A stretch of 64,000 bases of DNA, taken from Alistipes sp. (GTDB lineage: Bacteria > Bacteroidota > Bacteroidia > Bacteroidales > Rikenellaceae). Positions 5,969 through 63,713 of the stretch are shown here, piece after piece; positions within the stretch are counted from its first letter, which is position 1, and each line of letters opens with the position of its first letter. The stretch is from contig JAZOPR010000014.1 in NCBI GenBank assembly GCA_045655685.1, forward strand, positions 75,471-139,470, given 5' to 3'. The notes beneath the pieces were generated by a model that was not told where the DNA came from, did not search any database, and saw nothing but the letters and a program-made list of their open reading frames with translations. Position numbers and translations under genes: made by a program.

Positions 5969-6041
5969 CGATTTCGGAGAAATCGTCATACACGTCGGCG
6001 CCCGCGACTGAAAGTCGCGCCGCCCCCCGCCGACGTGTATG
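5969..6041 (-). repeat. Nested GC-hairpin element, CATAC class, copy 1 (mini-hairpin CGATTTCGGAGAAATCG plus a long hairpin)
   Basis: Arms CATACACGTCGGCG (5987-6000) and CGCCGACGTGTATG (6028-6041) are perfectly complementary. The inner hairpin is CGCGACT-GAA-AGTCGCG. Confidence 0.85.
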
Positions 6042-6043
6042 CT

Positions 6044-6076
6044 CTAATTTTGAATTTTGCTTTTTGAATTTTGAAT
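6044..6076 (+). repeat. 33-nt AT-rich TTGAAT module, copy 1
   Basis: CTAATTTTGAATTTTGCTTTTTGAATTTTGAAT. Near-identical copies occur at 12112-12144 and 16685-16717. Confidence 0.8.
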
Positions 6077-6108
6077 AAAAAATTAAAGCCCCGCAAAAGC
6101 GAGGCTTT
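6074..6108 (-). terminator. Rho-independent terminator of the pyrC-like gene
   Basis: Minus-strand hairpin AAAGCCTCGC-TTTT-GCGGGGCTTT, followed by AATTTTTTATT. Confidence 0.6.
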
Positions 6109-6129
6109 AATTGTGAATATCAACACTTT

Positions 6130-7476
6130 CTACTTTCTGCGAGGGGCAAATTCGAGGCGAGATCCGCGTACCGAACGATCGACACGACCCTCCGCAAACG
6201 CCTTGCGACCACCGACCAGCGTCAGCTCGACCGACGACGAAAAACGCTCACCCTCGAAGGGCGACCAGCCACATTTATATAATACGTTCTCGCGCGTCAC
6301 GGTCTGCTCCTTGTGCGGATCAACCACCACAATATCAGCGTGATAGCCCTCGCGCAAGAATCCACGACCAACAACACCGTAGCGCACCGCAGGCGCGTGG
6401 CACATCTTCTCGACCACCTTCTCAACGGGCAGCACACCTCGCTGCACCAGCTCCAACATCACCACCAGCGAGTGCTGCACCGACGGACCTCCCGACGGAC
6501 ACGACCAATAGGGTTGCGACTTCTCCTCGTCGCTATGGGGGGCGTGGTCGGTGGCCACCAGATCGACCTTGCCGTTGAGCAGACCCTCGCGCAGAGCGTC
6601 GCGATCGGCCGCACTCTTGACCGCAGGATTCCACTTGATACGGTTGCCGCGATGGGCGTAATCCTCGTCGGTGAACCAAAGATGATGAACACAAACTTCG
6701 GCGGTTATATTCTTCTCACTCAAAGGCTTAGAACTGAGTAACGAAAGCTCGCAAGCCGTACTTACGTGCAGCAGATTGAGCTCTGCCGAGTAGCGATCGG
6801 CCAGCTCCACGGCGCGTGCCGACGAGAGATAGCAGGCCTCGGCGTCGCGGATCAGGGGGTGCATTGCGGGGGTCACATTGTCGCCATAGCGAGCGCGGAA
6901 CAGCTCGATCTGGGCGCGGATACGCTGCTCGTCCTCGCAGTGGGTCGCCACCACCACGGGTGACGAATCGAACACGGCCGAGAGCGTGCGCTCGTTATCG
7001 ACCAACATATTGCCCGTCGATGAACCCATAAACATCTTCACGCCACACACCGCACGCGGATCGATGCGACGCACCTCGTCGATATTGTCGTTCGTGGCGC
7101 CCAGATAGAACGAATAGTTGGCCACCGAGCACTCGGCTGCGCGATCGAATTTGCGCTCTAAGTCGCTGAGTGTCACCGTCGGAGGTTTCACATTGGGCAT
7201 ATCCATAAACGATGTGACGCCACCCGCCACAGCCGCTGCCGACTCCGAAGCGATGTCGCCTTTGTAGGTCAAACCCGGCTCGCGGAAATGGACCTGATCG
7301 TCGATCGCGCCCGCCATAACCCACTTGCCCGTGGCATCATAGCGTTCGCCCTCGAATTCGCCCTCGAACGCACCCTCGCCAATGCTGGCAATCAGGCCGT
7401 TACGGACAATGATATAACCCTCGAATGTGCGGCCTTCGTTGATGATCTGACCGCCATAAATAAGAATTGGTGTCAT
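6130..7476 (-). CDS. pyrC: Dihydroorotase-like cyclic amidohydrolase (PyrC family)
   Basis: 448 aa containing VHFREPGLTYKGDIASESAAAVAGGVTSFMDMPN and a VATDHAPH motif. The first metal-binding motif reads DDQVH rather than DxHxH (see findings). Confidence 0.75.
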   Translation of the reverse strand: MTPILIYGGQIINEGRTFEGYIIVRNGLIASIGEGAFEGEFEGERYDATGKWVMAGAIDDQVHFREPGLTYKGDIASESAAAVAGGVTSFMDMPNVKPPTVTLSDLERKFDRAAECSVANYSFYLGATNDNIDEVRRIDPRAVCGVKMFMGSSTGNMLVDNERTLSAVFDSSPVVVATHCEDEQRIRAQIELFRARYGDNVTPAMHPLIRDAEACYLSSARAVELADRYSAELNLLHVSTACELSLLSSKPLSEKNITAEVCVHHLWFTDEDYAHRGNRIKWNPAVKSAADRDALREGLLNGKVDLVATDHAPHSDEEKSQPYWSCPSGGPSVQHSLVVMLELVQRGVLPVEKVVEKMCHAPAVRYGVVGRGFLREGYHADIVVVDPHKEQTVTRENVLYKCGWSPFEGERFSSSVELTLVGGRKAFAEGRVDRSVRGSRLEFAPRRK

Positions 7477-7505
7477 ACGTGATTAGTTTTTCACCACAAA
7501 TTTAG

Positions 7506-7513
7506 TAATTTTG
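7506..7513 (+). promoter_or_regulatory. -7 promoter box TAATTTTG
   Basis: Exact TAnnTTTG match, 18 nt upstream of the ATG at 7531. Confidence 0.5.
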
Positions 7514-7530
7514 TCGCAAATTAATCAACT

Positions 7531-9096
7531 ATGCCGCAAACAATCACCATTCAACTCTCGCCCCGCGAGGCCGCCGACCCCGAAATCTACACCTCGTTGG
7601 CAGCCCGTCGTATGGGTATCCGTCGCTCGGAGGTCGCTCTGGCGCGTGTCGTGAAGCGTTCGATCGACGCCCGCCAACGCAACGTGAAGGTCAATCTCTC
7701 GATCGAAATCTATGTCGATCGTGAGCCCAAACCCGCCCCCGTACACTTCGACTACCCCGATGTGAGCGGTCGCACCGAGGTGGTGATTGTCGGTTCGGGT
7801 CCTGCGGGATTGTTCGCGGCACTGCGACTTATCGAGCTGGGTTACAAGCCGATAGTGTTGGAGCGCGGACGCGACGTGTCGGCACGCAAACGCGACATCG
7901 CGCAGATCAACCGCAACGGCGAGATCGATCCCGACTCGAATTACGCCTTTGGTGAGGGCGGCGCAGGAACATTCTCGGACGGCAAGTTGTTCACCCGCTC
8001 GAAGAAACGTGGCGACTACAACAAAGCACTGCAAACGCTTGTCTATCACGGTGCTGTGCCCGACATTCTGTTCGAGGCGCACCCCCATATCGGCACCGAC
8101 CGCCTGCCCCGCATTATGACCAACGTGCGACAGACGATCCTCAACGCCGGTGGCGAATTTCTGTTCGACAGCCGAGTTACGGGACTGATTATCAAGGGTG
8201 ATCGTGTCGAGGGCGTCGTGTGTGGCGACCGCCGAATCGATGCCGCAGCCGTGGTGATGGCTACGGGACACTCGGCACGCGACATCTACCGAATGCTCGA
8301 CGCCTCGGGCGTGCGCTTGGAGGCCAAGGCCTTCGCAATGGGCGTGCGAATCGAGCACCCGCAGGCGCTGATCGACTCGATCCAATACCACTGCCGTGAG
8401 CGAGGTGAGTATCTCCCCGCAGCAAGTTATTCGCTTGTTTGTCAGCAGTTTGGGCGTGGAGTCTATTCGTTCTGTATGTGCCCTGGCGGATTCATCGTGC
8501 CCGCAATGACCGAGCAGTGGCAGTCGGTTGTGAACGGAATGTCGCCCTCGGGTCGCAACTCAGTTTTTGCCAATTCGGGACTTGTCACCGAGGTGCGTGT
8601 GGAGGACTATGCCCACCTGAGCGAAGAGTTTGGCGTGCTGGCTGGTTTGGAGTATCAGGAGCGCCTCGAACGCCTCGCGCGCGAAAATGGTGGCGACAAG
8701 CAAATCGCTCCTGCTCAGCGAGTTGCCGACTTTGTAGCGGGTCGTCGTTCGGGTTCGATCCCACACACATCGTACATTCCGGGCACGGTCGCTTCGGAGC
8801 TTTCGGCGTGGTTGCCGCCATTTATGGGCGAGGCCCTGAGAGCCGGAATAGGCCACTTCGGTCGCCGAATGAAGGGTTTTGTGACCAACGATGCGGTGGT
8901 TCTCGGTGTCGAGTCGCGCACCTCGTCGCCCGTGCGTATTCCGCGCGATAGCGACACGCTGATGCACCCCGAAACTCTCGGTCTGTTCCCTGCGGGTGAG
9001 GGTGCGGGCTATGCCGGCGGCATCATTTCGGCAGCCCTCGACGGCGAACGAATTGCCGATAAAGTGGCCGAATATGTGGCTCGCGGCAGACGCTAA
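7531..9096 (+). CDS. FAD-dependent oxidoreductase (COG2509-type FAD-dependent protein)
   Basis: 521 aa with the dinucleotide-binding motif VVIVGSGPAGLFAALRL and a C-terminal LFPAGEGAGYAGGIISAALDG segment typical of this family. Confidence 0.7.
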   Translation: MPQTITIQLSPREAADPEIYTSLAARRMGIRRSEVALARVVKRSIDARQRNVKVNLSIEIYVDREPKPAPVHFDYPDVSGRTEVVIVGSGPAGLFAALRLIELGYKPIVLERGRDVSARKRDIAQINRNGEIDPDSNYAFGEGGAGTFSDGKLFTRSKKRGDYNKALQTLVYHGAVPDILFEAHPHIGTDRLPRIMTNVRQTILNAGGEFLFDSRVTGLIIKGDRVEGVVCGDRRIDAAAVVMATGHSARDIYRMLDASGVRLEAKAFAMGVRIEHPQALIDSIQYHCRERGEYLPAASYSLVCQQFGRGVYSFCMCPGGFIVPAMTEQWQSVVNGMSPSGRNSVFANSGLVTEVRVEDYAHLSEEFGVLAGLEYQERLERLARENGGDKQIAPAQRVADFVAGRRSGSIPHTSYIPGTVASELSAWLPPFMGEALRAGIGHFGRRMKGFVTNDAVVLGVESRTSSPVRIPRDSDTLMHPETLGLFPAGEGAGYAGGIISAALDGERIADKVAEYVARGRR

Positions 9097-9193
9097 ACGG
9101 CTAAAAATGGCCCGTTTGGCACGAAATGCTAAAAAAATTTACTATTTTTTGAAAAATTTTTAAGAAATATTTGCACGGACCGAAAATTCACCT

Positions 9194-9201
9194 TACCTTT
9201 G
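9194..9201 (+). promoter_or_regulatory. -7 promoter box TACCTTTG with upstream TTTGCA; no protein-coding gene lies downstream on this strand
   Basis: Exact TAnnTTTG match. A TTTG lies about 20 nt upstream (ATATTTGCACGG). Confidence 0.4.
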
Positions 9202-9207
9202 CAGCGA

Positions 9208-9349
9208 AGTTTTAAGGTTCATTTAGGTTAGTAGTTTTAGGTTGGTAGAGGACGTCGGCAGGGCGCGGTCGTGATGCTGCGAAGCATAGGAGATCGCTTG
9301 GGTTAAAGCACAGTGCTTTAATCGACCACCCTCCGAATCCTCGTTTTTT
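9208..9349 (+). ncRNA. Candidate small RNA of about 140 nt, unclassified
   Basis: Preceded by a consensus -7 box. Contains a GNRA-capped hairpin ATGCT-GCGA-AGCAT, the palindrome TTAAAGCAC-A-GTGCTTTAA, and the direct repeat TTAGGTTAGTAG/TTAGGTTGGTAG. Ends in CCTCGTTTTTT. There is no credible ORF. Confidence 0.25.
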
Positions 9350-9465
9350 AGAAATTAAACGCGTGTCGGTGCACAGACCGCGACAATATATATAAATGTT
9401 CGAAGTTGCTCTCTGATCCTCTGGATTGGGGAGTTTGTTTTTTATGTAGGTAGGCCCCCTCTCGC

Positions 9466-9496
9466 TAAACAAAAAGCCTCGCTTTGCGAGGCTTTT
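9466..9496 (-). terminator. Rho-independent terminator of rsmG (bidirectional shape)
   Basis: Hairpin GCCTCG-CTTTG-CGAGGC flanked by an A-run and a T-run. Confidence 0.7.
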
Positions 9497-9529
9497 AATC
9501 GTAGATACGAAAGGTTAATCCTCGTCGCT

Positions 9530-10150
9530 CTATCGCTTGGTATAGACCACCTTCTTGGTGTCGAAGAACTCCTCGTCGTAGAGGTCCGAAATCGAATAGA
9601 GATCCCAGCGCTTGCCCGTAAGTGCCAGCTCCTCGGCCAGATCGCCACCCTTCAAGTAGAGTATTCCGTTGGGCAACGTGCCGCGCTGACCGTGCTCGAT
9701 CTTGTGCCAGATCCAGCCCGTGAAGGTCTTCATATCGGTCACAGCGCGGCTCACAACGTAGTCGAATCGCTGGGGCAGGCTCTCCACGCGCGCATTGACG
9801 GGCGTTACATTGGTAAGACCCAACGCCGCGCAGACCTCGCGCACCACCGTGATCTTCTTGCCGATCGAGTCGGCTGCCGTGAATTGCACCTCGGGAAACA
9901 GAATCGCCAGCGGCACGGTCGGGAAACCGCCACCGCAACCCACGTCCAACACACGTGCACCCGCCTCGAATTGGCACACCTTGGCGATGGCCAACGAGTG
10001 CAGCACGTGGCGCAGATAGAGGCTGTCGATGTCCTTGCGCGAGATCACATTGATGCGTGCGTTCCACTCGGTGTACAACGGCAACAACTGCTCGAATTGC
10101 TCGCGCTGACGCTCGGTCAGGTCGGGAAAGTATTTGAGAATCAACTCCAT
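9530..10150 (-). CDS. rsmG: 16S rRNA (guanine527-N7)-methyltransferase RsmG/GidB
   Basis: 206 aa with the SAM motif VLDVGCGGGFP and the family-typical N-terminus LTERQREQFEQLLPLYTEWNARINV. Confidence 0.9.
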   Translation of the reverse strand: MELILKYFPDLTERQREQFEQLLPLYTEWNARINVISRKDIDSLYLRHVLHSLAIAKVCQFEAGARVLDVGCGGGFPTVPLAILFPEVQFTAADSIGKKITVVREVCAALGLTNVTPVNARVESLPQRFDYVVSRAVTDMKTFTGWIWHKIEHGQRGTLPNGILYLKGGDLAEELALTGKRWDLYSISDLYDEEFFDTKKVVYTKR

Positions 10151-10168
10151 ATCTTGTAACTCTTTTCT

Positions 10169-10741
10169 TTACATTTTATCTTCGACGATGAATCGGCACA
10201 ACTGCTCGCGGGCGCGATGAATCTGGGTCTTGACCGTGCCCAACGGCAACGAGAGCTTCTCGGCAATCTCCTCGTAGGAGTACTCCAAAAAGAAACGATA
10301 CTCGATCAGCAGTCGGTAGCGAGGCGTCATACGATCCAGGTGGTGCTCGATGCGTCCGCGCTGTTGCAGACTGATGACGCTCTCCTCGGGCGTCGGCACG
10401 GTCGAGGCGGGTGTGACGGTCGAGTGCGACGGCAGGGCGTCGATCGACAGGTCATCGTGGCGCTTACGCACGTAGTCGATCAGCGTGTTGCGGGCGATGG
10501 TGTAGGCCCACTGACCGAAGGTATATCCGCGGTCGTAGCGTGCCAGATTAATGAACACCTTGATGAAGGTCTCCTGCAACAGGTCGTCGACATCGCTCGA
10601 ATTGCCCAGACGCTGAACATAGAGGCGACGAATCGACTCGCCATAGCGGTTGAACAGATACTCGAAGGCGGCCTTGTCGCCCCCAAGCACCCAATCGACC
10701 AACTGCGCGTCGTCGGCAACTATGTAGTCGGCTATCTCCAT
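10169..10741 (-). CDS. ECF-type RNA polymerase sigma-70 family factor
   Basis: 190 aa. Region 2 reads DDLLQETFIKVF and WAYTIARNTLIDYVRK. Region 4 reads YSYEEIAEKLSLPLGTVKTQIHRAREQL. Confidence 0.85.
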   Translation of the reverse strand: MEIADYIVADDAQLVDWVLGGDKAAFEYLFNRYGESIRRLYVQRLGNSSDVDDLLQETFIKVFINLARYDRGYTFGQWAYTIARNTLIDYVRKRHDDLSIDALPSHSTVTPASTVPTPEESVISLQQRGRIEHHLDRMTPRYRLLIEYRFFLEYSYEEIAEKLSLPLGTVKTQIHRAREQLCRFIVEDKM

Positions 10742-11886: not shown

Positions 11887-11996
11887 TGTCGAAATTTAAA
11901 CTGCAATTATTCGGACAAAGATACGATTTTTAATTCACAATGCACAATTAAAAATTCACACCGAGGGCGGGTTTTGTTGTTTTATATCTAAAATCT

Positions 11997-12068
11997 GCGA
12001 TTTCGTAGAAATCGTCATACACTTCGGCGCCCGCGACTGAAAGTCGCGCCCCCCCGCCGACGTGTATG
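11997..12068 (-). repeat. Nested GC-hairpin element, CATAC class, copy 2
   Basis: GCGATTTCGTAGAAATCGTC followed by CATACACTTCGGCG...CGCCGACGTGTATG, with one arm mismatch. Same inner hairpin CGCGACTGAAAGTCGCG. Confidence 0.85.
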
Positions 12069-12111
12069 CTCTAATGTTGATAAACAAAAAAAGCCCCGCA
12101 GTTGCGAGACT

Positions 12112-12144
12112 CTAATTTTGAATTTTGCTTTTTGAATCTTGAAT
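12112..12144 (+). repeat. 33-nt AT-rich TTGAAT module, copy 2
   Basis: CTAATTTTGAATTTTGCTTTTTGAATCTTGAAT. Confidence 0.8.
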
Positions 12145-12145
12145 T

Positions 12146-12176
12146 TCATCATCGGCGGGCACACTCGCGGGCTGGG
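12146..12176 (+). repeat. Truncated 5' half of a CACACTCGCGG-class hairpin element
   Basis: CATCATCGGCGGGCACACTCGCGGGCTGGG matches the left half of the full copy at 12871-12931. The right arm is absent. Confidence 0.7.
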
Positions 12177-12204
12177 TATGAATAACTCGATAGACATACG
12201 TGTT

Positions 12205-12765
12205 TTACTCGCCAAATCGGAAACCGAGCGAGATGGTTATGCCACTGCCCGTCTGTGCCACTAAATTTTGGTTCATATAGGAGATTGCGGCGTGGTAGCG
12301 ACCAAACTCGACTCCGAGTATCGGCTCCAAATAGCCACTCACATCGATTTTGCCGTCACGATAGCGTTGCTGCTCCATTACCTCGAACGCTGCGCCCAAA
12401 CGCAAACCAACATAGGGCTGCACCTTGCTGTTGCGACCAAACAATCCGCGAATCTCGCCAAAAACGGGCACCGCAAGTTCGTGGCGACCCTGCTTGCCAA
12501 TGCCCCAAATCAGACCCGTACCAGCACCAACATAGAGGCACTCGCGGTGCAGATAACCCTGCGAAGTGACGGCGTGTAGGCACGCATCGCCGCTACTGCT
12601 AAACTCATCGACCGTCACTTGGATGTCCAGATAGCTACGGTAGCCACTCGCATAGATCGGTTTTTCATCTTGCAGATACTGCTCGATGTAGCCCTGCGCC
12701 GCGAGTGGCGAGAGCGCCGCCGTGCCAAAAACGAAGGCGACCAACAGAAGTAAAACTCGTTTCAT
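12205..12765 (-). CDS. Outer-membrane beta-barrel (porin-family) protein with signal peptide
   Basis: 186 aa with signal peptide MKRVLLLLVAFVFGTAALSPLAAQG, alternating hydrophobic beta-strand patterns, and a C-terminal SLGFRFGE. Confidence 0.6.
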   Translation of the reverse strand: MKRVLLLLVAFVFGTAALSPLAAQGYIEQYLQDEKPIYASGYRSYLDIQVTVDEFSSSGDACLHAVTSQGYLHRECLYVGAGTGLIWGIGKQGRHELAVPVFGEIRGLFGRNSKVQPYVGLRLGAAFEVMEQQRYRDGKIDVSGYLEPILGVEFGRYHAAISYMNQNLVAQTGSGITISLGFRFGE

Positions 12766-12882
12766 AAGCGGATCTCTTGAAAGTTTGTTTTTATGACTAT
12801 AACGCTCAGCGTTTCAATTTATTATGCAGTGAGATAATTTTTCGTTTTTTTAATTCAGAGCAAAGATCATCATCGGTGTTCG

Positions 12883-12953
12883 CACACTCGCGGGCTGGGG
12901 CGGTCGCCCGAAGGGCGAGCCCGCGAGTGTGTGGCGGTTTCATCGAAATCGCC
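12883..12953 (+). repeat. Nested GC-hairpin element, CACACTCGCGG class, with a degenerate mini-hairpin
   Basis: Arms CACACTCGCGGGCT and AGCCCGCGAGTGTG are perfect. The G-run GGGGCGG and inner hairpin TCGCCC-GAA-GGGCGA are present, followed by GGTTTCATCGAAATCGCC. Confidence 0.85.
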
Positions 12954-13042
12954 AACGAATAGGATTATCTACTTTTTTATTTTTATTAATTCTTTTTAAG
13001 CAAAGAAAAAATCTTGAATCTTGAATTGCGAATCGCCAACCC

Positions 13043-14581: not shown

Positions 14582-14597
14582 ATTGATTTATTGCATT

Positions 14598-16247: not shown

Positions 16248-16351
16248 AATTTTCGAAGTGTTGGGGTGTAAAGGTATGAAAAACGCGGCGAAATTCAAAA
16301 TTCAAGATGCGAAATTACCAAATTATTTACTCGGCTCTCGACAAAATCACA

Positions 16352-16396
16352 CACTCGTGGGCTGGGGGGATCGACCTTTGGTCGAGCCCACGAGTG
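16352..16396 (+). repeat. Nested GC-hairpin element, CACTCGTGG class
   Basis: Arms CACTCGTGGGCT and AGCCCACGAGTG are perfect. G-run GGGGGG. Inner hairpin TCGACC-TTTG-GTCGA. Confidence 0.8.
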
Positions 16397-16400
16397 CGCA

Positions 16401-16515
16401 CGCCATAGGGGCGGGTTTTACTGTTTTCGGTTGTAGCAGATTGGAATCTGTTTGCAAAATCCCAAATCTTCTCGCAACTCACCCCCCAATAACAACCATA
16501 TGGGCGGGTTTTGTT
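16401..16515 (+). repeat. 115-bp element, copy 1, bounded by GGGCGGGTTTT modules
   Basis: Differs from the reverse complement of 30485-30600 by two substitutions and one 1-nt indel, aligned by hand. Confidence 0.85.
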
Positions 16516-16537
16516 GTTTTTTCGCTTCGACTTAATC

Positions 16538-16610
16538 CAAGTTCGGTGGCTGGGGGGGCGTGCGACAAAAGTCGCACGAGCCACCGAACTTGACGATTTC
16601 TCCGAAATCG
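16538..16610 (+). repeat. Nested GC-hairpin element, CAAGTTCGG class, plus mini-hairpin CGATTTCTCCGAAATCG
   Basis: Arms CAAGTTCGGTGGCT and AGCCACCGAACTTG are perfect. Inner hairpin GTGCGAC-AAAA-GTCGCAC. Confidence 0.85.
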
Positions 16611-16684
16611 ATTTACTCTCGCTGACCCGCCGATGATGACGAAATTCCGAGAATTTCGATTTATTGTTTTTATTAAAGCAAAGG

Positions 16685-16717
16685 CTAATTTTGAATTTAG
16701 CTTTTTGAATTGTGAAT
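16685..16717 (+). repeat. 33-nt AT-rich TTGAAT module, copy 3
   Basis: CTAATTTTGAATTTAGCTTTTTGAATTGTGAAT. Confidence 0.8.
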
Positions 16718-16718
16718 T

Positions 16719-16738
16719 TTATTTGCCTATCTTTGCAA
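16719..16738 (+). repeat. 20-bp direct repeat, left copy, containing -33 TTTG and the -7 box TATCTTTG (16728-16735)
   Basis: TTATTTGCCTATCTTTGCAA is identical to 17841-17860. It lies 16 nt upstream of the acyltransferase ATG at 16754. Confidence 0.85.
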
Positions 16739-18962: not shown

Positions 18963-18967
18963 TCGAG

Positions 18968-24347: not shown

Positions 24348-24406
24348 TTCACAATTTACCCCGACTCCGGGTGAGATTATGCCTTTCGATTAGTATCAAC
24401 TTTATC

Positions 24407-24472
24407 CAAGTTCGGCGGCTGGGGGGTCGGCCTTCGGCCGAGCCGCCGAACTTGACGATTTCTCCGAAATCG
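24407..24472 (+). repeat. Nested GC-hairpin element, CAAGTTCGG class, plus mini-hairpin CGATTTCTCCGAAATCG
   Basis: Arms CAAGTTCGGCGGCT and AGCCGCCGAACTTG are perfect. G-run GGGGGG. Inner hairpin TCGGCC-TTCG-GCCGA. Confidence 0.85.
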
Positions 24473-24633
24473 CCCGCCATCTGAACGGTTTTGCCTTTTC
24501 TGTCGCTTAAATCACGCAATTAAGATTTCGGCTTATATTGAATCCTTAATTTCGAATTTCACGCCCGTTTTCTGCCAACGAAAATTGTTGATAATTGTCG
24601 GCTCGGATTTGCAAAAAGAGAACTTTTTATGCG

Positions 24634-27802: not shown

Positions 27803-27866
27803 AATTGGCGAGCGGGGGGGCAGCCCTACACGACCCGAAACGAGGTCGCTAAAAATCAAATTAAAT

Positions 27867-27883
27867 ATTGTAATCGTTACAAT
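27867..27883. promoter_or_regulatory. Perfect palindrome ATTGTAA-TCG-TTACAAT with a third half-site ATTGTAAT at 27889-27896 (candidate operator)
   Basis: Read directly from the intergenic region between nth and the flippase gene. Confidence 0.3.
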
Positions 27884-27974
27884 TTCCTATTGTAATTTTC
27901 GGGAGGTTGTGACGCCTCGTGCGCGCGCTCGAAGGCAAGTTCCGGGGCGTAAGTTTTGGAAGAGCCAATTATTT

Positions 27975-27995
27975 TTATAACTTTGTAAGTTATAA
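27975..27995 (+). promoter_or_regulatory. -7 box TAACTTTG (27978-27985) embedded in the perfect 9-3-9 palindrome TTATAACTT-TGT-AAGTTATAA
   Basis: Exact TAnnTTTG match, 22 nt upstream of the ATG at 28007. The palindrome was verified base by base. Confidence 0.45.
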
Positions 27996-28006
27996 ATAGC
28001 AAAACT

Positions 28007-30343: not shown

Positions 30344-30388
30344 ATTCAAGATTCAAGATTAATTGGGTTTTGGATTGAGGATATTAAA

Positions 30389-30462
30389 GGCAGTTTCTGC
30401 GGAAACTGCCCAAGTTCAGCGGCTCGGCCAAAGGCCGCCCCCCGCACCCGCCGAACTTGGAT
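30389..30462 (-). repeat. Nested GC-hairpin element, CAAGTTC class, with mini-hairpin GGCAGTTTCTGCGGAAACTGCC; inverted twin of 63640-63713
   Basis: A 49-nt stretch is identical to the reverse complement of the 63.6-kb copy, followed by 2 mismatches over the next 25 nt. Confidence 0.85.
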
Positions 30463-30484: not shown

Positions 30485-30600
30485 GCAAAACCCGCCCATA
30501 TGGTTGTTATTGGGGGGGAGAGTTGCGAGAAGATTTGGGATTTTGCAAACAGATTCCAATCTGCTACAACCGAAAACAGTAAAACCCGCCCATATGGCGG
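30485..30600 (-). repeat. 115-bp element, copy 2, inverted relative to 16401-16515
   Basis: The hand alignment of its reverse complement to 16401-16515 shows near identity. Confidence 0.85.
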
Positions 30601-30617
30601 GTGGCGATACGCACACG

Positions 30618-30664
30618 CACCTTCGGGGGCTGGGGCGGTCGCCGAAGGCGAGCCCCCGAAGGTG
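30618..30664 (+). repeat. Nested GC-hairpin element, CACCTTCG class
   Basis: Arms CACCTTCGGGGGCT and AGCCCCCGAAGGTG are perfect. G-run GGGGCGG. Inner hairpin TCGCC-GAAG-GCGA. Confidence 0.85.
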
Positions 30665-30736
30665 TGTCAAAATCTTTGATTTTGCCAATTTGTTGGGCTG
30701 AGCTTGAAAACATAAAAACAAAAAAACTGACTGAAA

Positions 30737-40936: not shown

Positions 40937-41009
40937 AGCCGCAAACGAGACTTGAACTCGTGACCTCTTCATTACGAGTGAAACGCTCTACCAACTGAGC
41001 TATTGCGGC
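40937..41009 (-). tRNA. tRNA-Thr (anticodon CGT), CCA not encoded
   Basis: The reverse complement reads GCCGCAATAGCTCAGTTGGTAGAGCGTTTCACTCGTAATGAAGAGGTCACGAGTTCAAGTCTCGTTTGCGGCT. It has a 7-bp acceptor stem, anticodon loop CTCGTAA and T-loop GTTCAAG. Confidence 0.9.
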
Positions 41010-41417
41010 ATCACTTCAAAGGTCTTGATCCTTTTGCGGTGCAAATATCCGAAAAAAATTTCGAATATTCCAACTTTCAAACCAAATTATATCATTTTAT
41101 CGCAAATTTTGTCTGAGCCTCGCCCGCAACCAGCCCCGTCGCACACCTCGCCTCGCACCTCGTATCCACTCTCGCCGCACGCCTCGCAACCCACCGCACC
41201 AAGTATGCATAAGCATACGATGCGGGTAGTTTTGTTCATAAAATATTACAGATATATGATATTATTCTCATTGCCGAATCGCCCGTTAATTCGCAACATC
41301 CGATGGTAAAGTTACGAATTTCGAATCGCAATTCCAACCTCTCGGGGCGATTCTGACGCAAAAGAGTGAACAATCTCCGATTTTTATTCGTATCTTCGCA
41401 TAAAATTACTTTCGCCT

Positions 41418-43521: not shown

Positions 43522-43716
43522 GACGATAATTGAACTCAGTCAGATTTGGCAAAGTGCAGTTTTCGTCAACAAATCGCATCTTTGCGAGCGTGGGGCGACT
43601 TTTAGACCGTCAATGACAAGGGCGAAGAGAGCAAAAGTCAAATAACAAAAGAACAATACGATGCCACATTAGATGAAATACTAAAAAAAGATAAAAGTGG
43701 TTTGAATAAAAGAACA

Positions 43717-49259: not shown

Positions 49260-49335
49260 GCGATTTCTGCAAGAAATCGTCATACGCGGCGGCGCCCGCG
49301 ACTGAAAGTCGCGCCGCCCCCCGCCGCCGCGTATG
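49260..49335 (-). repeat. Nested GC-hairpin element, CATAC class, copy 3
   Basis: GCGATTTCTGCAAGAAATCGTC followed by arms CATACGCGGCGGCG and CGCCGCCGCGTATG, which are perfect. Two base pairs differ from copy 1, with changes on both arms. Confidence 0.85.
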
Positions 49336-49378
49336 CTCTCGTTCGACAGCCGAATATTTGCCTAAATTGCAACAAAAA

Positions 49379-55971: not shown

Positions 55972-55981
55972 CTTAAATCAT

Positions 55982-56521: not shown

Positions 56522-56569
56522 GCGCACATAAGTAAAAGCCAAAAAAGGCGATTCCCAATGGAAATTGTC

Positions 56570-56618
56570 CACCTTCGTGGGCTCGCCATTCGGGCGACCG
56601 CCCCAGCTCACGAAGGTG
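56570..56618 (-). repeat. Nested GC-hairpin element, CACCTTCG class, inverted orientation
   Basis: Arms CACCTTCGTGGGCT and AGCTCACGAAGGTG have one mismatch. The C-run lies on the 3' side, followed by the inverted module GCCCGCCATATGGC. Confidence 0.8.
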
Positions 56619-56642
56619 CCCGCCATATGGCTTCAAATAAAA

Positions 56643-57275: not shown

Positions 57276-57352
57276 CGGCGGTTTTCGAAAAAAAGTCGGA
57301 GGTGGAAGTGCCACCACCGACTCATTGGTTAAATATCTCTACCTGAGGAGCT

Positions 57353-58357: not shown

Positions 58358-58363
58358 CTCTAC

Positions 58364-59284: not shown

Positions 59285-59288
59285 TGTG

Positions 59289-60461
59289 TTATTCGAAAAT
59301 TCGTTTGAGGGTTATGCGGATTGTTGTGCCCTTGCCGATTTCCGAGTCGATCACCGCAATGCGACCCTTGTGGTACTCCTCGATGATGCGGCGGCTGAGC
59401 GACAGACCCAGACCCCAACCGCGTGTTTTGGTCGTGAAGCCGGGTTCGAAGATTCGCTTCCAATTGTTGCGGGCGATACCCTTGCCCGTGTCGCGCACAT
59501 CGACAAAGACGCTCTCCGAGTTCGACGAGATCGTGACGTTGATCGCGCCCTGACCTTGCAGTGCATCGAGCGAATTTTTGAGCAGATTCTCGACCACCCA
59601 CTCGAACAGTGCCGAGTTGATCATCGCCTGCACGGGTGCGGTCGCCAAGCCGTTGTAATCGAGCGTCACGTTGCGCGGGATACGGGTGCGGAAGTACATC
59701 ACACAGCCTCCCACAACCTCATTCACGTTGGCCGCAGCGAGAATGGTCTCCGAGCCGATTTTCGAGAAACGATCGACGATCTTCATCAGGTGCGTGAGGT
59801 CCTTATTCATCTCATCGACAGCCGTTTGGTCGACCTCCTGCGTACGTAGATACTCGATCCAGCCCAGCAGCGACGAGGTGGGTGTTCCGAGCTGGTGGGC
59901 GGTCTCCTTGGCCAGACCGATCCAGACGCGGTTCTGCTCGTCCTGCTTCGACGAACTGAACGCAATGTAGCCGAACAGAATGAAGATCACCACCACCAGC
60001 AACTGCACCAGCGGGAAGTAGTACAACGTGCGCAACAGACGCGACTCGCCGTAGAAGATATAGATGTTATCCTGCGAATTCCAGCGGTTGCGGATCACGA
60101 TCGGGCTATTTTTTTCGGTCAGCTGATCGATCTTTTCGCGCAGCAGGTCGGGGTGGTTGATGACCGACTGCGGGATCAGGTGCGATTCGAGCACACGCAG
60201 ATTGTTGTCGGTGATAATCAGGGGGATATTGTTGCGGCCCGAGATGATCTCCGACATCAGCGGATCCTCGGTCAGGAACATACTCGAACTGCCACTGCGC
60301 TCCATTGCCATCGCCCATATCTGCACATCGTGCTGCTCTTTCTCGCGGAGCGACTGCGCCATACGCGAGGTGAAAAACAACGACGCACAGGCCAATACAA
60401 GACCCAATACGATGACAACCATTCGGTTGCGGAACGTGAGCAGGCGGGTAAGGCGTTTCAT
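59289..60461 (-). CDS. Sensor histidine kinase (orphan; no response regulator in the window)
   Basis: 390 aa with two TM helices flanking a periplasmic loop. H-box ETAHQLGTPTSSL, N-box LLKNSLDA, G-boxes DTGKGI and GWGLGLSL. Confidence 0.85.
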   Translation of the reverse strand: MKRLTRLLTFRNRMVVIVLGLVLACASLFFTSRMAQSLREKEQHDVQIWAMAMERSGSSSMFLTEDPLMSEIISGRNNIPLIITDNNLRVLESHLIPQSVINHPDLLREKIDQLTEKNSPIVIRNRWNSQDNIYIFYGESRLLRTLYYFPLVQLLVVVIFILFGYIAFSSSKQDEQNRVWIGLAKETAHQLGTPTSSLLGWIEYLRTQEVDQTAVDEMNKDLTHLMKIVDRFSKIGSETILAAANVNEVVGGCVMYFRTRIPRNVTLDYNGLATAPVQAMINSALFEWVVENLLKNSLDALQGQGAINVTISSNSESVFVDVRDTGKGIARNNWKRIFEPGFTTKTRGWGLGLSLSRRIIEEYHKGRIAVIDSEIGKGTTIRITLKRIFE

Positions 60462-60494
60462 CTCTCTGTCGGGTTTGGGGGTGAGTTTCGGGGT

Positions 60495-62198
60495 TTATTC
60501 GTCGCGTTTGTGCTGGCGGGCGGTATCCTGCTCACGCAAAATACGGTTGTACTCTGCGCTGTTGCCGAGCAGTTCGACTGCCGCAGCCGCATCTTTGTCG
60601 TCTTGCAGGTTGTATTGCGCCACGCCCTCCGAGTAACGGTAGCGCAGAATGATCTGAGTGTTGATTGCATCGAATAGCTCCTCGCGGTGACGGCGCAGGT
60701 TGCTCTCCATATCGCCTTCGAGCGCGCGCTCCAAACGACGAATATCGGCCAGCACGGTCGAGTCGTGACGCTCCTGCTCGGCCGCACGACGCACCACATC
60801 GGCATACTGACTGCTCTGCGAGCGATACGAGGTCTTGCGGTCGCGCATCATCTCGACAAACTGCTCGAAATCTGAGTCCGAGATCGAGAATGTCGCGGGA
60901 TTCAGCTTTTGCAGACGCTCATCGTGCGCCTTTGCGTAGTCGTCGGCAAAGTCCTCGATGTGACCCTCGGCATAGAGCGTCATCACAAATCGCGTTGCAT
61001 ACTCCGCCTCGCGCTCCACGTCGGGCATCACACCACCGCCGTCATAGACCTTACGTCCGCCACGAGTCGCAAACTCGCGGATCAGCGAGTCGGGCACATA
61101 ATCGACCGAGCCGTCATCGTTGCGATGGGCGTAGTCGATAGCCTGAATACAGCGTCCGCTGGGCATATAGTATTTTGCGGTGGTCACCTTCAAGTAGTCG
61201 CCATAGCCCACCGAGCGGGTCGATTGCACCAGACCCTTGCCGAACGTGCGGCGACCCATCAGCACCGCGCGATCCATATCCTGCAACGCGCCCGCCACGA
61301 TCTCGGCCGCCGAAGCCGAGCCGCTATTGGTCAGCACGACAATCGGTAGTTGGGTGTCAATCGGCTCTTTGTCAGTGCGATACGTGTGGCTCATCTCCTC
61401 GGTGCGACCCTTCATTTCGAGCACCTTCGTGCCCTTGGGCAGGAACATCGACAGAATCTCGATCGCCTCCTGCACGATGCCGCCGCCATTGCCGCGATAG
61501 TCGAGCACCAGACCACGCAGGCGACCCGTCTCGCGCATCTTCATCAGCTCGCGGCGCAGATCGGCAGCACAGTCCTCGTTGAAGTCGCCGTGCGCGATGT
61601 AACCGATCGAGTCGTTCAACCAACCCGCATAGGTCACGCCCGAAATTGCAATTCGCTCGCGACGCAGCGAGAGCGTCATCACGCTGTCATCGACCAGTCG
61701 AGCCACCTTCAAACGGATCTCGGTGCCGGGGTCGCCTTTCAGGCGGTTGCTCACCTGCTCGGTGGTCATTCCCTTGGCCGATTCGCCGTCGATCTCGATG
61801 ATGCGGTCGCCGATTTTGATGCCTGCGCGATCGGCCGGACGACCCTTGTAGGGCTCGGCAAAACGCACATAATCACCCTTTTGGCGAATCAACGATCCCA
61901 CACCGCCATACTTGCCCGTGGTCATCATCTCGAACTCTTCGACCTCCTTCTCGGGCATATAGGCCGTGTAAGGGTCGAGTGTCGAGGTCATACCCTCGGC
62001 AGCATTTTTCATCAGTTCATTGGGGTCGGTCGGATCGACATAGAGCACGTGCAGTTCGCGCATCATATTGATCAGTACCTCGATGTTGCGACCTAGCGCA
62101 AAGTCGTTACGCGCCGAGGCCGTCAGCACCACCGCCACAGCCACGACCGCCACCGCCGCCGCAATGCGACGCACGATATGTTTAGAGTTCTTCGCCAT
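60495..62198 (-). CDS. S41-family C-terminal processing peptidase with a PDZ domain
   Basis: 567 aa with a signal anchor, a PDZ domain (GIKIGDRIIEIDG), the catalytic-serine region LTNSGSASAAEI, and a Lys region TFGKGLVQ. Confidence 0.85.
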   Translation of the reverse strand: MAKNSKHIVRRIAAAVAVVAVAVVLTASARNDFALGRNIEVLINMMRELHVLYVDPTDPNELMKNAAEGMTSTLDPYTAYMPEKEVEEFEMMTTGKYGGVGSLIRQKGDYVRFAEPYKGRPADRAGIKIGDRIIEIDGESAKGMTTEQVSNRLKGDPGTEIRLKVARLVDDSVMTLSLRRERIAISGVTYAGWLNDSIGYIAHGDFNEDCAADLRRELMKMRETGRLRGLVLDYRGNGGGIVQEAIEILSMFLPKGTKVLEMKGRTEEMSHTYRTDKEPIDTQLPIVVLTNSGSASAAEIVAGALQDMDRAVLMGRRTFGKGLVQSTRSVGYGDYLKVTTAKYYMPSGRCIQAIDYAHRNDDGSVDYVPDSLIREFATRGGRKVYDGGGVMPDVEREAEYATRFVMTLYAEGHIEDFADDYAKAHDERLQKLNPATFSISDSDFEQFVEMMRDRKTSYRSQSSQYADVVRRAAEQERHDSTVLADIRRLERALEGDMESNLRRHREELFDAINTQIILRYRYSEGVAQYNLQDDKDAAAAVELLGNSAEYNRILREQDTARQHKRDE

Positions 62199-62673
62199 TC
62201 TCTTTTCTCATATAAATTTCCGAGCGATAGATGACCTGCACCACCGCCGCGCGATGACCGCGGATCACCGTTCGATCGCCCTCCGACCACACCTCCAATT
62301 CGTCCTCCCACAGCAGTCGCGCACGACGCGACGGCGACGAGGCACGATACAGCAGCACACCCTCGCGCTCGCCCGTCAGTTCGAACTCGCAAGCCGTCAT
62401 CGCAGCGTCGACTCCCGCGCGGTTCTGCTCCAACGAGATGGGCAGCGAGCGGGTCATATATCCGAAGGCGGGGTAGGCCAACGCCAACAAAATCAGTACC
62501 GGCAACAACCATTTCGATCGCTCGTCGGCGCGCAACATCGCAATGTAATCCTCCACCGACATCGGTGTGCTCTCGAAGTAGTACGACAGCGCATAGAGCG
62601 CCACGATCAAAACGATCAGCAGCACGAAATATTTTACGGCTCGAATCAGATAACGGTCAGTTCTCATAATCAT
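62182..62673 (-). CDS. Hypothetical two-TM membrane protein
   Basis: 163 aa with helices YFVLLIVLIVALYALSYYF and WLLPVLILLALAYPAFGY. Its 3' end overlaps the peptidase start by 17 nt. Confidence 0.45.
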   Translation of the reverse strand: MIMRTDRYLIRAVKYFVLLIVLIVALYALSYYFESTPMSVEDYIAMLRADERSKWLLPVLILLALAYPAFGYMTRSLPISLEQNRAGVDAAMTACEFELTGEREGVLLYRASSPSRRARLLWEDELEVWSEGDRTVIRGHRAAVVQVIYRSEIYMRKENGEEL

Positions 62674-62692
62674 TTTTCTATTTATTCACACG

Positions 62693-62747
62693 CCATTTGG
62701 GCGGGTTTTGCTTTTTAATTTGTTTTAATTAATCCAAGTTCGGCGAC
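62693..62747 (+). repeat. Truncated composite element: GGGCGGGTTTTG module plus only the left arm of a CAAGTTCGG hairpin
   Basis: CCATTTGGGCGGGTTTTGCTTTTTAATTTG...AATCCAAGTTCGGCG parallels the junctions at 16496-16550 and the reverse complement of 30451-30500. The element stops 4 nt before the ispH stop codon. Confidence 0.65.
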
Positions 62748-62750
62748 AAA

Positions 62751-63614
62751 CTATAATTCTGAATTCTCAATATAGTCTGCCACACGTTGCATCAACCATT
62801 TCGGGGTTGAGGTCGCACCGCAAATGCCTACGGTCGCCGCCCCTGCGAGCCATTCGGGTTGCAGTTCCGAAGCCTCTTCGATGTTGTAACTCAGCGGGTT
62901 GGCTTTGCGACACACCTCGAACAGCACCTTGCCGTTCGAGCTCTTGCGACCACACACGAAGATCACTCGATCGACCGAACGGGCAAACTCCGAGAGTCGC
63001 TCCTCGCGCCCTGCCACCTGCCCGCAGATCGTATCGACCGCCTCGATCTGCTCGGGATCGGCGGCGCGGCTACGCATCACCTCCAAGATGTGCTCGAACA
63101 GCGCACGGCTCTGCGTGGTCTGCGACAGGAAGTAGATCGGACGCGCGAAATCGACCTCCGCCAGGTCGGCCTCATTCTCGACCACGATGGCACGACCCGC
63201 GACCTGACCCGTCAGTCCGACCACCTCGGCGTGGCCGTGCTTACCAAGTATAACCACCTGACCGCCAACCTCCTGCATCTGCTCGTAGGCGCGTTTGACC
63301 TTGCGTTGCAGAGCCGCCACCACGGGGCACGTAGCGTCGATCACCTCGATACCCAACTGCTCGGCACGAGCGTAGGTCGTCGGGGGCTCGCCGTGAGCTC
63401 GGATGAACAATCGACGACCGCCCAAGTGCTCCATATCCTCGTGCGAAACAGTCCGCAAACCAAGCTCTTCCAATCGTTGCACCTCGACACGATTGTGCAC
63501 GATATCGCCCAGCGAATAGACCGTACCGCCCTCCGCCAGAGCCTCCTCAGCTCGCGAAATGGCACGCACCACGCCGAAACAAAAACCCGAATTATCGTCG
63601 ATCAGTACCTTCAT
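62751..63614 (-). CDS. ispH: 4-hydroxy-3-methylbut-2-enyl diphosphate reductase
   Basis: 287 aa containing MKVLIDDNSGFCFGVVRAI, DATCPVV and GATSTPKW. Confidence 0.95.
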   Translation of the reverse strand: MKVLIDDNSGFCFGVVRAISRAEEALAEGGTVYSLGDIVHNRVEVQRLEELGLRTVSHEDMEHLGGRRLFIRAHGEPPTTYARAEQLGIEVIDATCPVVAALQRKVKRAYEQMQEVGGQVVILGKHGHAEVVGLTGQVAGRAIVVENEADLAEVDFARPIYFLSQTTQSRALFEHILEVMRSRAADPEQIEAVDTICGQVAGREERLSEFARSVDRVIFVCGRKSSNGKVLFEVCRKANPLSYNIEEASELQPEWLAGAATVGICGATSTPKWLMQRVADYIENSEL

Positions 63615-63639
63615 TTTTCTATCGTTTCTCTTTTTTTCG

Positions 63640-63713
63640 ATCCAAGTTCGGCGGCTGCGGGGGTCGGCCTTTGGCCGAGCCGCTGAACTTGGGCAGTTTC
63701 CGCAGAAACTGCC
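63640..63713 (+). repeat. Nested GC-hairpin element, CAAGTTC class, with mini-hairpin GGCAGTTTCCGCAGAAACTGCC; twin of 30389-30462
   Basis: Arms CAAGTTCGGCGGCT and AGCCGCTGAACTTG have one mismatch. Inner hairpin TCGGCC-TTTG-GCCGA. Confidence 0.85.

Follow-up and report, generated by a model that had tools for sequence, protein, structure and literature searches.

To our knowledge, repetitive extragenic palindromes (REPs) and the domesticated transposases that accompany them are known almost entirely from Proteobacteria, and the Bacteroidota are nearly blank in this respect. REPs are defined as high-copy extragenic palindromes with an unpaired foot, GT[AG]G or CGTC, and the GTAG group occurs with a gene for a REP-associated tyrosine transposase (RAYT) that is flanked by its cognate REPs (PMC3733652, PMC6006769). 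For the E. coli enzyme TnpA-REP, the substrate must be an imperfect palindrome with a bulge, presented as single-stranded DNA (PMC8266576). In Bacteroidetes, RAYTs of subclass 2.6 (Bertels group 5) are flanked by "atypical" small hairpins without GTAG, such as GTTC-CAGCGGATT-TAT-AATCCGCTG in B. xylanisolvens; CGTC-tagged REPs, some of them from Bacteroidetes, have no dedicated transposase (Di Nocera 2013). Here, we describe a dense intergenic repeat from a 64,000-nt stretch of an Alistipes sp. assembly (Rikenellaceae; GCA_045655685.1, contig JAZOPR010000014.1, positions 75,471 to 139,470), hereafter referred to as the window. The repeat forms a polar, two-hairpin family in which the core is conserved and the arms vary yet stay paired; its copies are intergenic, biased toward the 3' ends of genes, polymorphic among strains, and recombine within the core. 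No published description of this repeat was found in the literature searched, and the family is apparently an undescribed architectural variant of the REP kind (including bacterial interspersed mosaic elements, BIMEs) from an understudied phylum.

An initial annotation of the window had listed 11 copies, numbered here E1 to E11 by position, and all 11 are in place and fold as it described. In each, a G-rich stretch and a short inner hairpin lie within an outer stem of 12 to 14 bp; nine copies have a perfect stem, and those of E2 and E10 contain one or two mismatches. Perfect outer stems of at least 12 bp with arms 15 to 47 nt apart occur seven times in the window (G+C content, 55.5%), compared with a mean of 0.26 and a largest value of 2 in 50 dinucleotide shuffles. 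A covariance model trained on 21 copies (R1) and run unfiltered over the window retrieved exactly 11 full copies, which scored 48 to 75 bits on the canonical strand and 14 to 32 bits on the opposite strand, with the best other match in the window reaching 12 bits. Zero matches were obtained from 1.28 Mb of control DNA from other Bacteroidota (80 loci, including six Alistipes loci syntenic for a comM-like gene of the Mg-chelatase family). Model scores, shuffles, and control DNA agree on one superfamily with a common scaffold, as had been proposed, rather than a collection of gene-specific terminators. The repeat is a real family, neither a chance pattern nor a terminator set. When folded as single-stranded DNA, the copies adopt the same two-hairpin structure from either strand, at roughly -26 to -30 kcal/mol (z -5.7 to -7.4). 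The copies with CATAC arms were also read correctly as the same architecture on the other strand, their mini-hairpin being the exact reverse complement. Intergenic DNA amounts to 5.1 kb of the window; it holds all 11 copies, which make up ~15% of it, and the ~59 kb of coding DNA holds none. The assertion that every larger intergenic gap holds a copy was overstated: 9 of the 13 gaps of at least 150 nt have one, and those at 9097-9529, 27803-28006, 41010-41417, and 43522-43701 are free of copies.

The unit spans ~70 to 80 nt, has a fixed polarity, and consists of five parts on the canonical strand. It begins with a class-specific leader of 2 to 4 nt (ATC, AGAG, ACG/GCG, or TT), with ATC preceding CAAG or CAAT arms and AGAG preceding CATAC arms; the three bases just 5' of the stem vary (ATC, GAG, GCG, ACG, TTT, and others). 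The outer stem of 12 to 14 bp always starts with CA and ends with TG and is capped by GGCT...AGCC, or by GGCG...CGCC in the CATAC class. A conserved G-rich bulge of 6 to 9 nt, present on the 5' strand only, leads into a semi-conserved inner hairpin with a 5- to 8-bp stem and a 3- to 4-nt loop. The fifth part, a mini-hairpin of 6 to 10 bp, follows 0 to 5 nt downstream of the big hairpin that the preceding parts form. Among the 54 copies with enough flanking sequence, a hairpin of at least 6 bp starting no more than 5 nt away was found on the 3' side in 51 and on the 5' side in 2, compared with 8.4% at random positions in the same loci. Given these counts, the polarity of bulge and mini-hairpin is a defining feature of the family. 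Mini-hairpin stems are diverse, with at least 12 different sequences (among them CGATTTC/GAAATCG, GGCAGTTTC/GAAACTGCC, GGCAAAATC/GATTTTGCC, GCGGATTC/GAATCCGC, CGAAATTC/GAATTTCG, and GCATCGCG/CGCGATGC), and the loop, mostly 3 nt, varies freely.

Aligned, 62 distinct copies yield the consensus nnn-CA-nnntcggc-GGCT-GnGGgGG-tCgnCc-nnn-GgnCGA-GCC-gcngaann-TG. The center and the helix ends are conserved, and the body of the outer helix drifts yet stays paired, with 29 variants of the 5' arm among 53 copies. Families of copies with identical arms are small (no more than 5 to 7 copies per arm). In the R1-fitted alignment of the 62 copies, 97.2% of outer-helix positions are paired and both sides have changed in 10 of 14 pairs, counts that lean toward structure because R1 itself guided the alignment and the copies are related to one another. 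Sliding the partner by one to three columns reduced pairing to 32 to 40%, and no column shuffle matched the observed covariation score. An independent MAFFT alignment gave 98% pairing with 9 of 14 pairs double-changed. So many arm variants (29 in 53 copies) speak against a fixed inverted-repeat sequence as the recognized feature and in favor of shape. On its own, covariation is not to be taken as selection for structure, because the loop inversions and chimeras described below are signs of template switching and recombination at the DNA level, processes that can likewise keep arms complementary.

As the initial annotation had stated, copies occur in both orientations and never within genes: 0 of 53 lie inside genes predicted with a simple gene caller written for this analysis. 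By the same gene calls, 17 copies fall in convergent, 25 in tandem, and 3 in divergent gaps, a preference for the 3' ends of genes and for convergent gaps that is also seen in REPs. Relative to the upstream gene, the copies in tandem gaps split into 9 in sense and 16 in antisense orientation. The flanking genes in the window are housekeeping genes (dnaB, a comM-like gene, uvrD/pcrA, holB, recO, rnpA, ispH, gidB, and a gene for an extracytoplasmic function sigma factor); the window contains no transposase, integrase, or nuclease genes. GC skew tracks gene orientation and gives no replication direction. For 10 of the 11 window copies, no T run follows either the big hairpin or the mini-hairpin. 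The terminators around E1 belong to a tRNA gene and an amidohydrolase gene, and the gene upstream of E2 has its terminator before that copy. RNA data consisted of assembled metatranscriptome contigs, and the evidence from them is not decisive because they carry no strand or 3'-end information. In four runs, the unique spacer next to E1 has zero contig depth, and no contig joins E1 to its unique flanks; those that cover E1 all derive from paralogs elsewhere.

Across related loci, R1 retrieved 68 matches, corresponding to the 62 distinct copies, from at least 10 metagenome-assembled genomes (MAGs) of Rikenellaceae or Alistipes. The carriers include Alistipes sp. HGM05558, a close relative with 92 to 94% identity in flanking DNA, as well as HGM05551, RGIG9040, T1900044866, T1900045318, and bin.103; carriers assigned to Rikenellaceae are RGIG2949, RGIG4016, RGIG155, and EPI_MAG_00004 (16 loci). 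The initial annotation would have been contradicted by a lack of further copies; more than 50 additional ones were found in the at least 10 related MAGs. A scan of viral contigs gave no copy, and a search of the JGI metagenome collection with the CATAC core only matched a single contig. The pattern TGACGATTTCNNNGAAATCG was too unspecific on genome contigs and gave mostly chance matches. The window lineage is present in pig, bovine, and manure gut metagenomes (~40 to 47% of k-mers), and the nearest relative of its comM-like protein is 70% identical; no record gave an exact protein match to the window genome. The family is restricted to an uncultured, Alistipes-like clade of animal-gut Rikenellaceae. 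One copy occurs per 5.8 kb of the window and about four per 20 kb of the strain loci, a density from which we infer several hundred copies per genome by extrapolation. In Logan metagenome assemblies (runs X1-X5), contigs end at element positions and depth over the elements is 5- to 20-fold higher; the repeats are thus a practical cause of MAG fragmentation in this clade.

Comparison of strains provided a view of how the elements change in place. Ten syntenic loci of 16 to 20 kb were assembled into a strain set by means of a 67-aa window protein that many public contigs encode in identical form (source contigs of up to 269 kb). Their genes are collinear and the flanking genes almost identical, and two intergenic regions differ in element content. 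The first region separates the 67-aa gene from holB. A complete E7 is present there in the window and in locus L217; six strains have an E7 without the mini-hairpin and one arm, and three have none. Two alleles of the neighboring E8 occur. The (+) allele has arms CACCTTCGGGGGCT and then mini-hairpin CAAAATC-TTT-GATTTTG; the (-) allele has arms CACCTTTGCGGGCT, which amounts to two compensated changes, and different downstream sequence. Both alleles adjoin the same terminator-like hairpin, CCCGCCCATATGGCGGG. The gap between a VTT-domain gene and uvrD holds one CAAGT element in the window and in L214, and two (-) elements instead in five strains. One of these is of a class whose arms read TCATCATTGGCGGG(T)...CCCGCCAATGATGA, and the other is a chimeric hairpin whose arms come from different classes (CACCTTCGTGGGCT / AGCCACCGAGAGTG). 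Loci L003 (HGM05558) and L213 are recombinants of both haplotypes, with junctions in the G-run or in the shared inner hairpin TCGGCC-nnn-GGCCGA. Over longer distances, E7 is kept at the same site in L002, L007, L008, and L009, where flanking genes are 84 to 94% identical.

Near-identical copies also differ by exact inversion of the hairpin loop: AAAA versus TTTT between E5 and its counterpart in L010, and TTC versus GAA at the second element of L209 versus L210, in whose mini-hairpin CTT likewise contrasts with AAG. As established by work on quasi-palindrome mutagenesis, such inversions are left behind when a strand switches inside a DNA hairpin. These hairpins therefore fold in DNA in vivo, and strand switching offers a nonselective route to "compensatory" arm changes.

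Two further differences among the strain loci were noted. L212 and L216 carry ~600 nt of extra noncoding DNA after an E6-like element (~3820-4450, corresponding to window 24473-24594), which includes several long A/T-rich hairpins, e.g., GTTACTTTTGTCAAACAAAAGTAAC and GCTACCTTTTGTGCCGACAAAAGGTAGC. At ~18.2-20.2 kb of L209-L218 (window 38.5-41 kb), gene content after a DUF4296 gene is variable and comprises a methyltransferase, a peptidase M64, AbiH, or small open reading frames plus cstA, which marks this region as a strain-variable island beside the tRNA at 40937-41009.

The search for a mobilizing enzyme combined a scan for the HUH...Y motif with phmmer and jackhmmer, seeded with two RayT-like proteins from unrelated loci. 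The motif scan yielded only two Y1-like open reading frames, both in unrelated loci (L018 and L181). The one at L018 6663-7718, from Bacteroidia MAG RUG13515, encodes a 351-aa protein with a RayT-like HUH/Y1 core (DHLH...YLADNP) and a long C-terminal extension. Its family is highly conserved and numbers 4,398 proteins; the 120 matches listed show 72 to 98% identity, and the few named members come from Bacteroidales or Prevotella MAGs. No REP-like hairpins were seen around the L018 gene, whose product may be a domesticated Y1 enzyme. Against Rfam, the window matched two tRNAs only at the gathering threshold, and permissive searching of 16300-16720 gave chance-level matches (E >1).

We regard it as slightly better than an even prospect that these repeats constitute a new REP/BIME-like family: DNA-level elements that are recognized and propagated as folded single strands by a structure-specific enzyme acting in trans, and are then reshuffled. 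Recognition would rely on shape together with the conserved bulge and core, not on arm sequence. The likeliest agent would be a single-strand DNA enzyme of the HUH/Y1 type (RAYT-like), presumably encoded elsewhere in the genome. After dispersal, the 15- to 25-nt core common to all classes would allow recombination and replication template switching between and within hairpins, which could give rise to the chimeras, inversions, partial copies, and mosaic clusters. The copies that persist would be those in the least harmful places, 3' of genes and beyond transcription units, and any host effects, whether on local DNA structure or on the RNA 3' ends of transcribed copies, would be secondary.

Several observations weigh against this account. 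Neither the window nor 487 kb of element-centered Rikenellaceae loci yielded a Y1/RAYT gene, and the mobilizing enzyme is pure inference because no other transposase gene turned up there either; the absence is weak negative evidence, as the search covered loci and no whole genome. No GTAG/GTGG or CGTC foot is present at the hairpin base, where the conserved features are a paired CA...TG base and the G-rich bulge. The small size of the identical-arm families indicates no recent burst. Among the strain loci, no site was recovered in clean filled and empty versions that differ by exactly one unit; the differences among these loci look like haplotype replacement and recombination, so any current transposition is conjectural. 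Mismatches of the G.T and A.C types (11 versus 6) do not differ significantly and do not indicate which strand folds. Conserved unpaired bases amid covarying helices are also a classic signature of functional RNA, and some copies do occur in metatranscriptome contigs, although the libraries may contain DNA.

The most serious competing explanation, though unlikely in our estimation, is that the copies are relic palindromes from an old burst, inherited vertically and moved only by homologous recombination among strains and among copies, their arms kept complementary by quasi-palindrome template-switch "correction" at replication instead of by selection or a transposase. Persistence of E7 at one site across the genomes named above, strain differences that resemble haplotype swaps with crossovers in the shared core, exact loop inversions indicative of template switching, small identical-arm families, and the lack of a transposase in the window and element-bearing loci would all be expected of relics. 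Relics would not feel the continuing constraint that is implied by a bulge, core, and polar mini-hairpin that stay conserved in at least 10 genomes despite drifting arms. Near-identical units at nonsyntenic sites, such as the 26-nt core of E1, E2, and E9 or the E5 composite and its L010 counterpart (89%), also speak against them, and a density of ~1 copy per 5 to 6 kb is hard to sustain without replenishment. Selection could instead act on RNA, the transcribed bulged hairpin and mini-hairpin binding a protein or blocking 3' exonucleases; E. coli REPs are known to stabilize upstream mRNA. We rate such a structured RNA motif as quite improbable. It would account for the conserved unpaired nucleotides between covarying helices, for wobbles compatible with G.U on the canonical strand (e.g., pair 11-63 in eight copies), for enrichment 3' of genes, and for element-bearing metatranscriptome contigs. 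It sits poorly with the lack of sense bias in tandem gaps (9 sense versus 16 antisense), with E1 and E2 past canonical terminators and E4 and E5 in a divergent promoter gap, with zero RNA contig depth over the unique spacer beside E1 in four runs, with the lack of an Rfam match, and with G.T and A.C counts that are not significantly asymmetric; loop inversions and chimeras are, moreover, DNA events.

A host function at the DNA level is less probable still: we consider it very unlikely that the copies are structured sites bound or processed by a chromosomal protein such as a gyrase, a nucleoid protein, or a recombinase, and spread and kept because they are useful. Sites for chromosomal proteins have been proposed for some BIMEs, and the regular density of ~1 per 5 to 6 kb in the window and strain loci, the conserved core with its fixed polarity, and the persistence of some copies across species would suit such a role. 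Presence and orientation, on the other hand, vary freely at the same site among near-identical strains, no candidate protein was identified, and the family is missing from the six comM-like-syntenic Alistipes loci and from all other Bacteroidota sampled, which makes a general chromosomal function unlikely. Derivation from a DDE insertion sequence (IS) as miniature inverted-repeat transposable elements (MITEs), with the outer arms as terminal inverted repeats, is effectively refuted, as are gene-specific terminators and chance GC palindromes, even though the elements are small and intergenic and their arms are inverted repeats with conserved CA...TG termini. No copy is flanked by a target-site duplication, the 29 arm variants in 53 copies are incompatible with a transposase that binds inverted repeats by sequence, the ~20 to 30 nt between the arms are too short, and no parent IS occurs in ~0.55 Mb of element-bearing DNA. 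Intrinsic terminators were rejected given the missing T run in 10 of 11 copies, the position of E1 and E2 beyond true terminators and of E4 and E5 in a divergent gap, and the antisense orientation of 16 of 25 tandem copies; chance is countered by 0.26 expected versus 7 observed stems and by the absence of model matches in the control DNA. Beyond these options and the REP/BIME-like account that we prefer, there is an unlikely, more speculative prospect that the G-rich bulge and inner hairpin form the recognition module of an undescribed structure-guided mobile element of single-stranded DNA, with a non-RAYT or very divergent HUH enzyme, or else of a very abundant structured nucleic-acid motif that serves the host in a major family of gut bacteria.

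Individual copies in the window illustrate the range of arm classes. The three members of the CATAC class, all on the (-) strand, share a 26-nt core. E1 (5969..6044; 52.9 bits) has leader GAG, a big hairpin at 5987-6041 with arms CATACACGTCGGCG/CGCCGACGTGTATG, bulge GGGGGGCGG, and inner hairpin CGCGACT-TTC-AGTCGCG, and a mini-hairpin at 5969-5985 (CGATTTC-TCC-GAAATCG); a pair of convergent canonical terminators encloses it, at 5909-5940 (+) and 6112-6081 (-). E2 (11998..12071; 48.2 bits), with one arm mismatch, comprises a big hairpin at 12015-12068 and a mini-hairpin at 11998-12014 and is distal to the terminator at 12113-12090 of gene 12205-12765. E9 (49261..49338; 53.3 bits; arms CATACGCGGCGGCG; big hairpin 49281-49335, mini-hairpin 49261-49279) is located between convergent comF-like and recO genes. 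Four copies belong to the CAAGT class. E5 (16535..16610, +; 62 bits) has leader ATC, a big hairpin at 16538-16592, a mini-hairpin at 16594-16610, and a long inner hairpin, CGTGCGAC-AAAA-GTCGCACG; the 121-nt composite that contains it is 89% identical to the nonsyntenic L010 sequence, in which the loop is inverted to TTTT. At the site of E6 (24404..24472, +; 73.8 bits; big hairpin 24407-24454, mini-hairpin 24456-24472), other strains have two (-) elements or recombinant forms. E7 (30389..30462, -; 65.1 bits; big hairpin 30411-30459 with a G.T wobble, mini-hairpin 30389-30410) and E11 (63640..63713, +; 74.8 bits; big hairpin 63643-63691, mini-hairpin 63692-63713) form the GGCAG subfamily and are paralogs whose similarity extends ~20 nt beyond the 3' end of E11.

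The CACCT class is represented by E8 (30615..30684, +; 62.9 bits), with a big hairpin at 30618-30664 and the mini-hairpin CAAAATC-TTT-GATTTTG at 30668-30684, and by E10 (56551..56621, -; 59.1 bits), in which an imperfectly paired big hairpin at 56570-56618 is accompanied by mini-hairpin ATTTCC-ATT-GGGAAT at 56551-56565 and adjoins a partial CCCGCCATATGGC hairpin. E3 (12880..12954, +; CACAC class; 65.7 bits) has its big hairpin at 12883-12931 and mini-hairpin TGGCGGTTTC-ATC-GAAATCGCCA at 12932-12954. E4 (16349..16419, +; CACTCG class; 58.3 bits), with a 12-bp stem at 16352-16396, occupies the divergent gap between dnaB and an acyltransferase gene, and a terminator-like hairpin with a T run (CGCC-ATAG-GGGCG) replaces its mini-hairpin. 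The mini-hairpins of E8 and E10 had been overlooked, and E4 has the terminator-like hairpin in that place. Two stretches annotated as truncated copies are arm fragments instead. The first, 12146..12176 (+), is a fusion of two arms, in which a stub of TCATCATCGGCGGG, a fifth arm class that is intact in other strains, joins a CACACTCGCGGGCTGGG arm and the first part of the G-run. The second, 62693-62747, combines a terminator-like hairpin (62693-62709) and a spacer, as found 5' of E5 and E7, with a CAAGT-class 5' arm stub (62737..62750, +; ATCCAAGTTCGGCG). A remnant missing from the earlier list, 16626..16658 (+), consists of a TCATCAT-class 3' arm, CCCGCCGATGATGA, and the mini-hairpin CGAAATTC-CGA-GAATTTCG.

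Other small modules accompany the elements. The terminator-like hairpin, CCCGCC-ATAT-GGGCGGG followed by TTTT, is a third repeated module found on either side of big hairpins, at 16403-16419, 16496-16512, 30487-30503 (-), 30581-30597 (-), and 62693-62709, with a partial copy at 56619-56631; its orientation is often "wrong" relative to adjacent genes. A 76-nt segment, ACTGTTTTCGGTTGTAGCAGATTGGAATCTG...CCCCCCAATAACAA, is near-identical at 16420-16512 (+) and 30580-30487 (-) and is edged by a 17-nt direct repeat, CCATA(G/T)GGGCGGGTTTT, that is itself part of the terminator-like hairpin. The segment occurs in the window and L210, not in L209 or the remaining strains, and looks like a separate small insertion into the terminator-like hairpin. 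Tandem heptamer arrays of (A/G)ATTCAA or its complement lie directly at gene ends beside elements (6046-6076, 12114-12146, 13010-13026, 16291-16316, 16687-16720, and 30344-30360) and vary in unit number among strains, e.g., between L213 and L214. Mosaic clusters at 16.35-16.66 kb and 30.39-30.69 kb each bring together two elements, terminator-like hairpins, a 93-nt module, and heptamer arrays, with no regular alternation of orientation: E4 and E5 are direct, E7 and E8 inverted. In BIMEs, REPs alternate regularly in orientation, and conserved linker motifs lie between them. Direct repeats of the 5' part of an element (TCATCATCGG...CACACTCGCGGGCTGGG) at 12146-12176 and 12867-12899 surround gene 12205-12765, and it looks as if the gene segment was inserted into, or duplicated across, an element. 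The gene encodes a 186-aa protein with a signal peptide, an outer-membrane beta-barrel-like character, and no Pfam match; this outer-membrane-like protein was considered and rejected as a transposase.

The family addresses a taxonomic gap, given that Bacteroidota dominate gut communities, and its architecture is unusual in combining high density, a conserved center, hypervariable paired arms, and an obligatory second hairpin. Element content serves as a strain-typing marker and is probably a driver of intergenic recombination. If an enzyme partner were found, it would establish a structure-specific system for single-strand DNA recognition in Bacteroidota and would bear on whether selection or template-switch repair is the origin of "compensatory" changes in palindromic repeats.

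The resemblance to REPs and BIMEs that the initial annotation had suggested extends to extragenic position, palindromic form, occurrence in both orientations, mosaic clustering with small modules, and 3'-end bias; it does not extend to a GTAG/GTGG or CGTC foot, and no associated RAYT was found in the window or the element-bearing loci searched. As with REPs, the unit is an extragenic, GC-rich, imperfect palindrome in high copy, and it measures 70 to 80 nt versus the classical 20 to 40 nt. E. coli REPs and BIMEs, whose RAYT is TnpA-REP (Quentin subclass 2.2), share the high density, the use of either orientation, the 3'-end bias, and the formation of mosaics with other short motifs. Shape and a bulge in single-stranded DNA are the determinants of E. 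coli REP recognition (PMC8266576, PMC6006769), a further likeness. Unlike E. coli REPs, the repeat described here lacks the GTAG/GTGG foot, has a bulge formed by a run of 6 to 9 nt rich in G rather than 1 to 3 nt, comprises two hairpins of fixed polarity at about twice the length, has arms that are far more variable within a genome, and has no RAYT beside any copy examined.

Other palindromic systems match the unit in part. Pseudomonas REPINs, inverted REP doublets mobilized by RAYTs, are likewise long hairpin-forming units with long persistence and small sequence families, whose mobility presumably requires single-strand folding. The repeat described here differs in that its outer arms are no REP hairpins, conservation lies in the center rather than the arms, and no flanking RAYT was found; a REPIN was rejected because the 12- to 14-nt arms contain no internal palindrome and are hypervariable around a conserved center. 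Integron attC sites were rejected as well (no GTTRRRY cores, no integrase, and copies dispersed among housekeeping genes instead of arrays), and the noncoding RNA arrays of UG27 reverse transcriptases were dismissed as prophage arrays with a different motif. The ends of IS200/IS605 elements and of their deletion derivatives, palindrome-associated transposable elements (PATEs), which insert 3' of a fixed tetra- or pentanucleotide, resemble the unit: both hairpins are on a single strand, the target is not duplicated, and the strands are polar. The 5' leaders (ATC, AGAG) are reminiscent of the IS200/IS605 target or cleavage tetranucleotide. The left and right hairpins of IS200/IS605 are ~20 nt and similar to each other, whereas the two hairpins here are unlike; no full-length IS200/IS605 parent or tnpA gene was seen in element-bearing DNA. 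CGTC-tagged REPs offer a precedent for a palindromic family without an associated transposase gene. They differ in their 8- to 9-bp stems, 4- to 5-nt loops, terminal unpaired CGTC, and CCA tail, with no bulge or second hairpin; CGTC occurs here only inside the CATAC-class stem. The REPs of subclass 2.6 come from the same phylum as the mini-hairpins described here (e.g., GCGGATTC-GAG-GAATCCGC and CGATTTC-TCC-GAAATCG) and, with stems of 8 to 10 bp, 3-nt loops, A/T-rich stem tops, and no GTAG foot, are very similar to them. Subclass 2.6 REPs differ in being single small hairpins with a documented RAYT link and no big bulged GC hairpin described. By analogy, the bulge requirement of TnpA-REP and the small hairpins of subclass 2.6 are two leads from the literature that keep alive the idea of a RAYT-like partner for this family.

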